From: Chlamydiales bacterium
Lineage (GTDB): Bacteria > Chlamydiota > Chlamydiia > Chlamydiales > JBDQID01
DNA: 10,172 nucleotides
Direction of reading: 5' to 3'
NCBI GenBank assembly: GCA_047611865.1
Contig: JBLFWS010000121.1
Span: 1 to 10,172, forward strand
Part shown: positions 3,686-3,874 of the stretch, piece after piece
Position numbering within the stretch: the stretch's first letter is position 1
Layout: every line of letters starts with the position of its first letter
Notes under the pieces: model-generated
Seen by the model: the letters and a program-made list of their open reading frames with translations, nothing else
Databases searched by the model: none
Told to the model about the DNA's origin: nothing
Position numbers and translations under genes: made by a program

Positions 3686-3874
3686 ATGGCAGAAAACCTA
3701 GTCGTCGTAAGCAAAGTAAAAAAAATGATCAAGGACAAATCTGGTTTGAACACTTCATCCAATGTAATGGATAAACTCTCTGAAATAGTTGAAAAAGAAT
3801 GTGGACAAGCTATTGAAAATGCTCAAAAAGATGGCCGTAAAACCGTTATGGACCGCGACTTTGAGCTAAACTAA
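3686..3874 (+). CDS. Bacterial histone-fold protein (Bd0055/HBb-like, single fold, tailless)
   Basis: LVVVSKVKKMIK (alpha1), NTS loop, amphipathic alpha2, then A..DGRKTVMDRDF with the histone RKTVxxxD signature (R51/D58). Co-linear with Bdellovibrio Bd0055 as recalled. GAGGT RBS upstream and hairpins downstream. Confidence 0.92.
   Translation: MAENLVVVSKVKKMIKDKSGLNTSSNVMDKLSEIVEKECGQAIENAQKDGRKTVMDRDFELN

Follow-up and report, generated by a model that had tools for sequence, protein, structure and literature searches.

The sequence analysed here, referred to throughout as the window, is a stretch of 10,172 nucleotides that makes up the whole of one contig (C121) of a chlamydial genome assembly. 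It carries a short gene on the forward strand whose product, a protein of 62 amino acids, is predicted to adopt a bacterial type of histone fold. The gene lies within a 5-kb stretch of unique sequence, together with an ORF carrying a CxxCxxCC domain, three orphan ORFs and a gene for a DUF938 methyltransferase. Insertion sequences (ISs) and their remnants are found on both sides. The features are listed in Table 1.

Table 1. Features identified in the window, with positions counted from its first nucleotide
Feature	Position	Strand	Details
IS630 transposase	204-1154	-	Matches profile positions 7-298 of 299; looks intact
Transposase-like, two overlapping ORFs in different frames	1423-1950, 1947-2723	+	175 aa, weak rve fragment; 258 aa, DUF6399
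Inverted repeat	3425-3497		20-nt arms, 80% complementary; just 3' of the stop (3406) of the upstream CxxCxxCC gene
Sigma-70-like promoter match	3517-3544	+	TTGAAT, 16 nt, TATCAT; 9/12 matches; 142 nt 5' of the start
Shine-Dalgarno-like GAGG	3675-3678	+	7 nt 5' of the ATG; identified by reading the sequence
Histone CDS, 62 aa	3686-3874	+	Stop codon included; from the ORF list, phmmer, AlphaFold2 and Foldseek
First 3' hairpin	3882-3896	+	Loop of 3 nt on a 6-bp G+C-rich stem; 8 nt 3' of the stop; lacks a T-run; in MFE and centroid structures
Second, long hairpin	3904-3939		In the 67-nt gap between the histone gene and the convergent ORF; from folding
Third hairpin, followed by seven T	4032-4064	+	Lies within the convergent ORF, at its 3' end
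IS30-family element	7803-8899		30-nt terminal inverted repeats; 260-aa ORF without the first 25 profile positions
IS630 N-terminal stub	8909-9400		
Repeat of about 600 bp	9325-9933		Internal inverted repeats with arms of 50-63 nt; interrupts the IS630 transposase stub

The gene, its signals and its neighbours

An initial annotation of this DNA had described a 62-aa ORF with an ATG start, and its limits and strand were found to be exactly as claimed. The start is unambiguous since the frame, open over 65 codons, extends only three codons upstream of the ATG. The ribosome binding site that had been proposed is also present, as the GAGG listed in Table 1. The gene occurs as a single copy in the 3.59-Mb assembly.

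The putative promoter of the initial annotation does not rise above chance: two sigma-70-like sites were found upstream of the gene compared with 1.9 expected from shuffled sequences. Inspection of the same region by eye gave no convincing match to a sigma-28 or other late promoter. The inverted repeat that follows the CxxCxxCC gene is possibly its terminator, a predicted function, and the histone gene would then be its own transcription unit. The hairpins that had been noted downstream are borne out by folding. The region 3872-4070 contains three of them and folds with z = -3.5, none of 200 shuffled sequences folding as well. The second hairpin, which can also be described as an inverted-repeat pair (arms 3899-3917 and 3926-3944, 84% complementary), is a candidate bidirectional terminator, and the third looks like an intrinsic terminator. 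A simple terminator scan returned an empty list for the forward strand and did not report the third hairpin. Rfam gave just two chance-level matches (E = 0.39 and 0.56), both far below the gathering scores.

The ORF that converges on the histone gene (3942-4817, reverse strand) encodes 291 residues without a Pfam match and includes a lipobox-like LPGC near its N-terminus. A single homologue, with 81% identity, was found for it among 5.8 billion proteins. It is encoded on a contig of length 6879, as is a histone with 94% identity to the one here, and the two genes may share that contig. No type III secretion or secretion-chaperone gene lies near the histone gene. None of the neighbours in the window recurs beside the histone gene in 107 other loci and, among 22 named chlamydial histone loci, at most four share any one neighbour. 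There is, then, no conserved neighbourhood that would point to a pathway.

The initial annotation had also placed the gene between two clusters of decayed ISs. This stands for the remnants, which are split or truncated, and does not stand for the IS630 transposase gene near the left end, which looks intact. The two overlapping transposase-like ORFs look like a single gene split by a frameshift; NCBIfam transposase models match neither of them. Copies of the IS30 element with 97-99% identity are present on two other contigs (C222 and C206), and the repeat of about 600 bp that interrupts the IS630 stub looks like a MITE-type element. Since the flanking ISs belong to different families, they do not form a composite transposon.

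Predicted fold and oligomer class, and conserved residues

A phmmer search against all PDB chains placed at the top two histone chains from Bdellovibrio bacteriovorus, Bd0055 (8fvx_A, E = 3.3e-15) and HBb (8cmp_A, E = 3.7e-15), in each case with residues 1-60 aligned to residues 1-60 without a gap; all other chains had E values of at least 0.001. With a profile of 60 homologues, the E value for 8fvx was 4.9e-24, and HLp (2.8e-8) and HTkC, both tetrameric, were found at about 3e-8. The curated family models gave scores under their cut-offs, with 19.4 bits against 21.4 for Pfam CBFD_NFYB_HMF (PF00808) and 30.7 bits against 50 for NCBIfam archaea_histone (NF043032). The assignment therefore rests on the match to HBb together with the fold. 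The Pfam model for Hc1 (PF07432) did not match the 62-aa ORF at E values up to 10.

An AlphaFold2 monomer model, built on the alignment, has a mean pLDDT of 87.6 and helices at residues 2-19, 27-48 and 56-59. The modelled alpha2 is thus 22 residues long and alpha3 only four, in keeping with the very short alpha3 originally claimed. The alpha3 histones are defined by an alpha3 of three to four residues and a shortened alpha2, and their bacterial dimer category was set up by sequence clustering (Schwab 2024, PMC11390915). Using Foldseek, the five best matches of the model in the PDB are all HBb or Bd0055 chains (TM 0.79-0.83, 52-53% identity). These are followed by HLp (TM 0.76-0.77, 38% identity), HTkC (TM 0.74) and then eukaryotic H2B and archaeal histones. 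Sequence profile, model and structure comparison all agree with the Bd0055/HBb-type histone fold of the initial annotation, and we conclude that the protein, as modelled, has this alpha3-truncated fold.

The protein has no tails, as had been observed, and is the same length as Bd0055 and HBb. Its histone-fold signature, given earlier as RKTVxxxD, reads RKTVMDRD (R51 to D58). The charge count in the initial annotation was exact (11 K/R and 11 D/E, net zero, pI 6.2), as was the layout it described, with +3 in the N-terminus and alpha1, -2 in alpha2 and -1 in the C-terminal part. Among 94 singlet homologues only four have a net charge of zero, the others carrying +1 to +4, and the median pI is 8.9. 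The zero net charge is therefore at the low end of the family and, with a pI of 6.2, is unusual for a protein that packs DNA in bulk.

The HBb residues with most DNA contacts are N22, R57, S9, T53, T8, S24, K10, K12, K52 and K16 (Hu 2024, PMC11317129). In the gap-free phmmer alignment nine of these ten are kept in the window's protein, T8 being replaced by V8. Sixteen columns are invariant in the 60 homologues (L5, V6, S9, K10, K12, I15, K16, A42, A46, R51, K52, T53, V54, D56, R57 and D58), with N22 and S24 nearly so. They include both partners of the RD clamp (R51-D58) and the three lysines of alpha1 (K10, K12 and K16). These correspond to elements already named in the literature: the RKTxxxD motif and the conserved alpha1 lysines in Schwab 2024 (PMC11390915) and the RD clamp of loop L2 in Hu 2025 (PMC12701072).

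In the HLp tetramer, R49, S52 and N53 contact F63, T61 and R55, and predicted tetrameric face-to-face (FtF) histones conserve R49, N53 and R55 in HLp numbering (Hu 2025, PMC12701072). HLp residues R49, S52 and N53 align with N45, K48 and D49 of the window's protein, the changes at R49 and N53 being as in HBb. From the triad R49/N53/R55, only the clamp arginine (R51, the partner of D58) is kept. Because the FtF tetramer residues are missing, the protein is assigned by its sequence to the dimer class, to which it is predicted to belong.

Host genome, distribution and selection

The assembly has 272 contigs and is 95.5% complete and 2.5% contaminated. It contains one match to the Hc1 model, on contig C89 (72.4 bits, over the Pfam cut-off), seven TLC/NTT nucleotide transporter genes and a single gene for HU (93 bits). 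As the assembly lacks a 16S rRNA gene, its lineage was placed using marker genes and the grouping of the genome collection. In the collection it is assigned to an order shared with 400 further genomes from the phylum, and to a family whose only other member is 68% complete and has no histone match. The contig fits this genome in its GC content (0.408 compared with 0.415) and in its tetranucleotide composition, whose correlation of 0.98 with the rest ranks at the 95th percentile among 61 contigs of comparable size. In addition, the 600-bp repeat recurs with 94-98% identity on more than 20 contigs, including that which carries the Hc1 gene. The host had been conjectured to be chlamydial; the Hc1, NTT and HU genes support this, and composition and repeats tie the contig to them. 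Contamination or mis-binning of the contig was considered and rejected on the basis of the composition and repeats it has in common with the other contigs of the genome.

The locus was found in nine DNA sequencing runs, eight labelled as ice metagenome and one as marine; no RNA runs containing positions 2800-5000 are listed. Contigs from three of the DNA runs cover the locus without difference, and one run that was not flagged as a possible source assembles positions 2946-4448 identically.

With the window's protein as query and a match defined as E <= 0.001, 93 of the 401 chlamydial genomes in the sample were found to carry the histone (72 of 335 among those of high quality). Using the family codes of the collection, it is nearly universal in f9 (31/35), f5 (5/5), f13 (5/6), f12 (2/2) and f26 (3/3), partially represented in f7 (19/69), f10 (9/90) and f31 (5/17), and was not found in the genomes searched of f4 (0/30; genomes of about 1.0-1.4 Mb, which would suit Chlamydiaceae), f6 (0/46) and f3 (0/23). 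The best identity to any copy in the genome collection is 72-73%; a homologue with 94% identity occurs on another contig. Within the best 80 of 503 confirmed stretches, metagenome-assembled genomes (MAGs) with chlamydial labels include Simkaniaceae, Simkania, Waddliaceae, Parachlamydiales, Anoxychlamydiales and Candidatus Sacchlamyda, and the non-chlamydial carriers include Bdellovibrionota, Planctomycetota, Myxococcota, Nitrospirota and others.

An exhaustive HMMER search (E <= 0.001) gave 527 clusters at 50% identity, a figure that includes doublets and N-terminally extended forms. The top-scoring entries (P0121-P0137) are proteins of 126-274 residues matched twice along their length and so represent naturally occurring tandem doublets of this histone, and many other matches carry N-terminal extensions of 40-150 residues.

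In a quick, poorly resolved maximum-likelihood tree (100 rows, 63 columns), the window's histone groups with six chlamydial rows (from f13, f25 and one Waddliaceae MAG; SH-aLRT 83, branch not starred), and the five rows nearest to it are all chlamydial. The Chlamydiota label requires 12 changes on this tree compared with 20.0 in shuffles, none of 500 shuffles giving a value as low.

Of the same 401 genomes, 400 were scored for Hc1, and it was found in 339 of these. Hc1 is also present in 78 of the 92 other genomes with a histone, or 85%, which equals the base rate. The histone is an addition to Hc1 and not a replacement for it.

In the metagenome scan no DNA relative of the histone gene was closer than 73%, so synonymous sites are saturated: the median pS against 174 gap-free relatives is 0.84. 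Among the 15 closest pairs, pN takes values of about 0.17-0.25, and the one pair for which dN/dS could be computed gave 0.17. Together with the 16 invariant columns, the low pN and saturated pS agree with the earlier statement that this is a maintained gene, and it is under purifying selection.

Some f9 genomes carry a second, divergent histone of about 68 residues with a lysine-rich N-terminal tail (L191:403-606 and L190:480-752, both on the reverse strand, in genomes G107 and G053). Its best solved relative is HLp (E = 5.4e-8), and in this alignment the equivalents of HLp R49, N53 and R55 are kept. Across the 401 genomes sampled, matches with at least 64% identity were confined to f9, where 12 of 35 genomes have one. 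In G053 and G060 this gene lies about 8 kb from the dimer-type gene; it is absent from the genome to which the window belongs. Chlamydiota are not among the phyla listed with FtF histones in Hu 2025 (PMC12701072).

Proposed role and comparison with known systems

The initial annotation implied that a chlamydial histone of this type would be new. This is not the case. Hocher 2023 (PMC10627809) reported 416 histone-fold proteins in 18,343 bacterial genomes; its Table S1 includes a Waddlia chondrophila protein (ADI38622.1, 62 aa) and entries from Waddliaceae and Chlamydiae MAGs, and its alignment file a Simkania negevensis protein (CCB88880.1). Chlamydiota are named among the phyla with bacterial dimer histones in both Schwab 2024 (PMC11390915) and Hu 2024 (PMC11317129), and the Waddlia and Simkania proteins are aligned in Hu 2025 (PMC12701072, Fig. 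1b). Full-text literature searches returned no work on the function of histone-fold proteins in chlamydiae. In the extracts available, a 2019 screen for Waddlia DNA-binding proteins (PMC6426960) followed other proteins, and those from a 2026 study of hctA and hctB (PMC13317200) make no mention of a histone fold.

The only stage data that we have seen concern Waddlia, where the histone transcript is higher in the infectious stage. W. chondrophila appears among the high-expression bacteria in Fig. 6a of Hocher 2023 (PMC10627809), and in the source data for that figure the RNA of its histone ranks at percentile 50.3 in the reticulate body and 89.8 in the elementary body. Both W. chondrophila rows in these data (supplementary file 4, SourceData_F_6A) share the label TTC1115 with the row for T. 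thermophilus. The label was probably copied there by mistake, and the identity of the gene in the Waddlia rows consequently rests on the species and condition columns.

By analogy with its characterized relatives, the ORF probably encodes a stand-alone bacterial dimer histone, a putative non-specific DNA binder that would serve as a nucleoid protein beside Hc1 and HU. Two copies would form a head-to-tail histone-fold homodimer, as in the solved relatives, and this dimer would bind the minor groove of DNA without sequence preference in the manner of HBb and Bd0055. Contacts would be made by the alpha1 lysines (K10, K12 and K16), by L1 (N22 and S24) and by L2 (K52, T53 and R57), the L2 loop being held by the R51-D58 clamp. 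The bound dimer might bend the DNA or, alternatively, coat straight DNA end-on; the binding mode of the prototype is disputed between Hu 2024 (bending, PMC11317129) and Hocher 2023 (end-on coating, PMC10627809). Neither a tetramer nor DNA wrapping is proposed because two of the FtF tetramer contacts are absent. In the cell the protein would act as a nucleoid-associated protein alongside Hc1 and HU, and its transcript might be enriched at the elementary-body stage, as is that of the Waddlia homologue. A developmental role has indirect support from this analogy. A net charge of zero would also be compatible with a protein that modulates DNA packing instead of condensing DNA.

This charge also has to be considered in relation to other functions. 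The histone fold could have been recruited for contacts between proteins or for a specific regulatory function, such as buffering or antagonising the very basic Hc1. Some eukaryotic histone-fold proteins do work outside chromatin. The net charge of zero and pI of 6.2, against the family median pI of 8.9, and the gathering of acidic residues in alpha2 and the C-terminus are in line with such a change, and both Hocher 2023 (PMC10627809) and Schwab 2024 (PMC11390915) warn that roles outside chromatin are possible for some prokaryotic histone-fold proteins. However, the nine retained DNA-contact residues are invariant or nearly so throughout the family, which as a whole is weakly basic (+1 to +3), so that a net charge of zero is a small step; moreover, no partner gene is conserved beside the histone gene. 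We consider a function of this kind unlikely. The near-neutral charge, unlike that of a bacterial packing protein, would also suit a secreted effector, a histone mimic that would disturb host chromatin after delivery into the host cell. Members of the phylum live obligately inside cells, and nuclear effectors are known from chlamydiae, NUE and the SWIB protein Wcw_0377 both reaching the host nucleus (PMC6426960). It is nevertheless extremely improbable that the window's protein is one of these: the same conserved protein occurs in non-chlamydial Bdellovibrionota and Planctomycetota and is a nucleoid protein in Bdellovibrio (Hocher 2023, PMC10627809), the window's copy lacks an N-terminal extension, its first 20 residues forming the conserved DNA-binding alpha1, and genes for secretion chaperones or type III secretion are not found nearby.

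It might also be argued that the gene stands outside chlamydial physiology, either as recent cargo of a mobile region or as part of a mis-binned Bdellovibrio-like contig. Its nearest relatives in the tree are, however, all chlamydial, and the histone persists across whole chlamydial families. GC content and tetranucleotides fit the genome, the 600-bp repeat is shared with more than 20 contigs including that with Hc1, and the sequencing run not flagged as a possible source gave an identical assembly of the locus. The setting of the gene, 5 kb of unique sequence with IS630, IS30 and further IS remnants on either side, would suit mobile cargo, as would the finding that its neighbours in the window are not beside the histone gene in other loci and that the sole other genome of the family (68% complete) lacks a match; the flanking ISs are, on the other hand, of different families and form no composite transposon. 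Taken together, this makes recent acquisition or mis-binning very unlikely, and a nucleoid-associated dimer histone remains the reading that we prefer.

Chlamydial development depends on the condensing and decondensing of the chromosome and, to our knowledge, no proteins other than Hc1 and Hc2 are invoked in the field to explain this. Roughly one in four of the genomes sampled from the phylum, among them that of the window, additionally encodes a genuine histone. We suggest, tentatively and by analogy with Waddlia, that the chlamydial histone could be a third stage-regulated nucleoid factor, switched on together with Hc1 at the transition from reticulate to elementary body, old in the phylum and lost in f4, whose genomes are small, and in other families. 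In that case the charge-neutral form described here would not itself condense DNA but would adjust the condensation driven by Hc1; it might, for instance, bend or coat DNA and leave its charge unneutralised. The suggestion is based on the rise of the Waddlia transcript from about the 50th to the 90th percentile, on the persistence of the gene across families and on its coexistence with Hc1 at the base rate. Our literature searches found no paper that addresses a third stage-regulated nucleoid factor in chlamydiae. What the window contributes is one more member of the family, divergent and without net charge, in a chlamydial genome that is large and rich in ISs, and it opens no new question.

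The closest known systems are Bd0055 and HBb (PDB 8fvx, 8cmp, 9ezz and 9f0e). Identity with these is 52-53% without gaps and the predicted fold is the same, as are length, absence of tails, four-residue alpha3, short alpha2, RKTVMxRD motif and RD clamp. The window's histone differs in its zero net charge (pI 6.2), in V8 in place of T8, as in most chlamydial members, and in its host, a chlamydia with Hc1 and HU and not a predatory bacterium. HLp (Leptospira perolatii) and HTkC (Thermococcus kodakarensis; PDB 9qt0 and 9f2c for the two) also have an alpha3-truncated fold and an RD clamp, with TM values of 0.74-0.77 and 35-38% identity to the window's histone. Unlike in the FtF tetramer HLp, R49 and N53 are replaced by N45 and D49, and DNA wrapping by a tetramer is therefore not expected. 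With archaeal histones of the HMfB type the protein shares the histone fold and the RxTxxxxD motif (a weak Pfam match; TM 0.55 with 1a7w), but archaeal nucleosomal histones have an alpha3 of about ten residues instead of four and a longer alpha2. A hypernucleosome-type tetramer interface is not expected.

Hc1 and Hc2 (HctA and HctB) are, like the window's histone, small DNA-associated chlamydial proteins, and hctA and Waddlia histone transcripts are both higher in elementary bodies. They are H1-like, however, and the histone shares neither sequence nor fold relationship with them; the Hc1 gene of this genome is a separate gene on another contig. This accords with the original proposal of a true histone fold unrelated to Hc1 and Hc2. 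The proteins of W. chondrophila (ADI38622.1/D6YWW1) and S. negevensis (CCB88880.1/F8L7X8) belong to the same family and have the same length and motifs. The pI of four catalogued chlamydial histones is 7.7-9.6 compared with 6.2 here, and the C-terminus is ELN where the Waddlia copy has HLN. The window's histone adds a new member, which diverges somewhat, to a published family already on record for this phylum.
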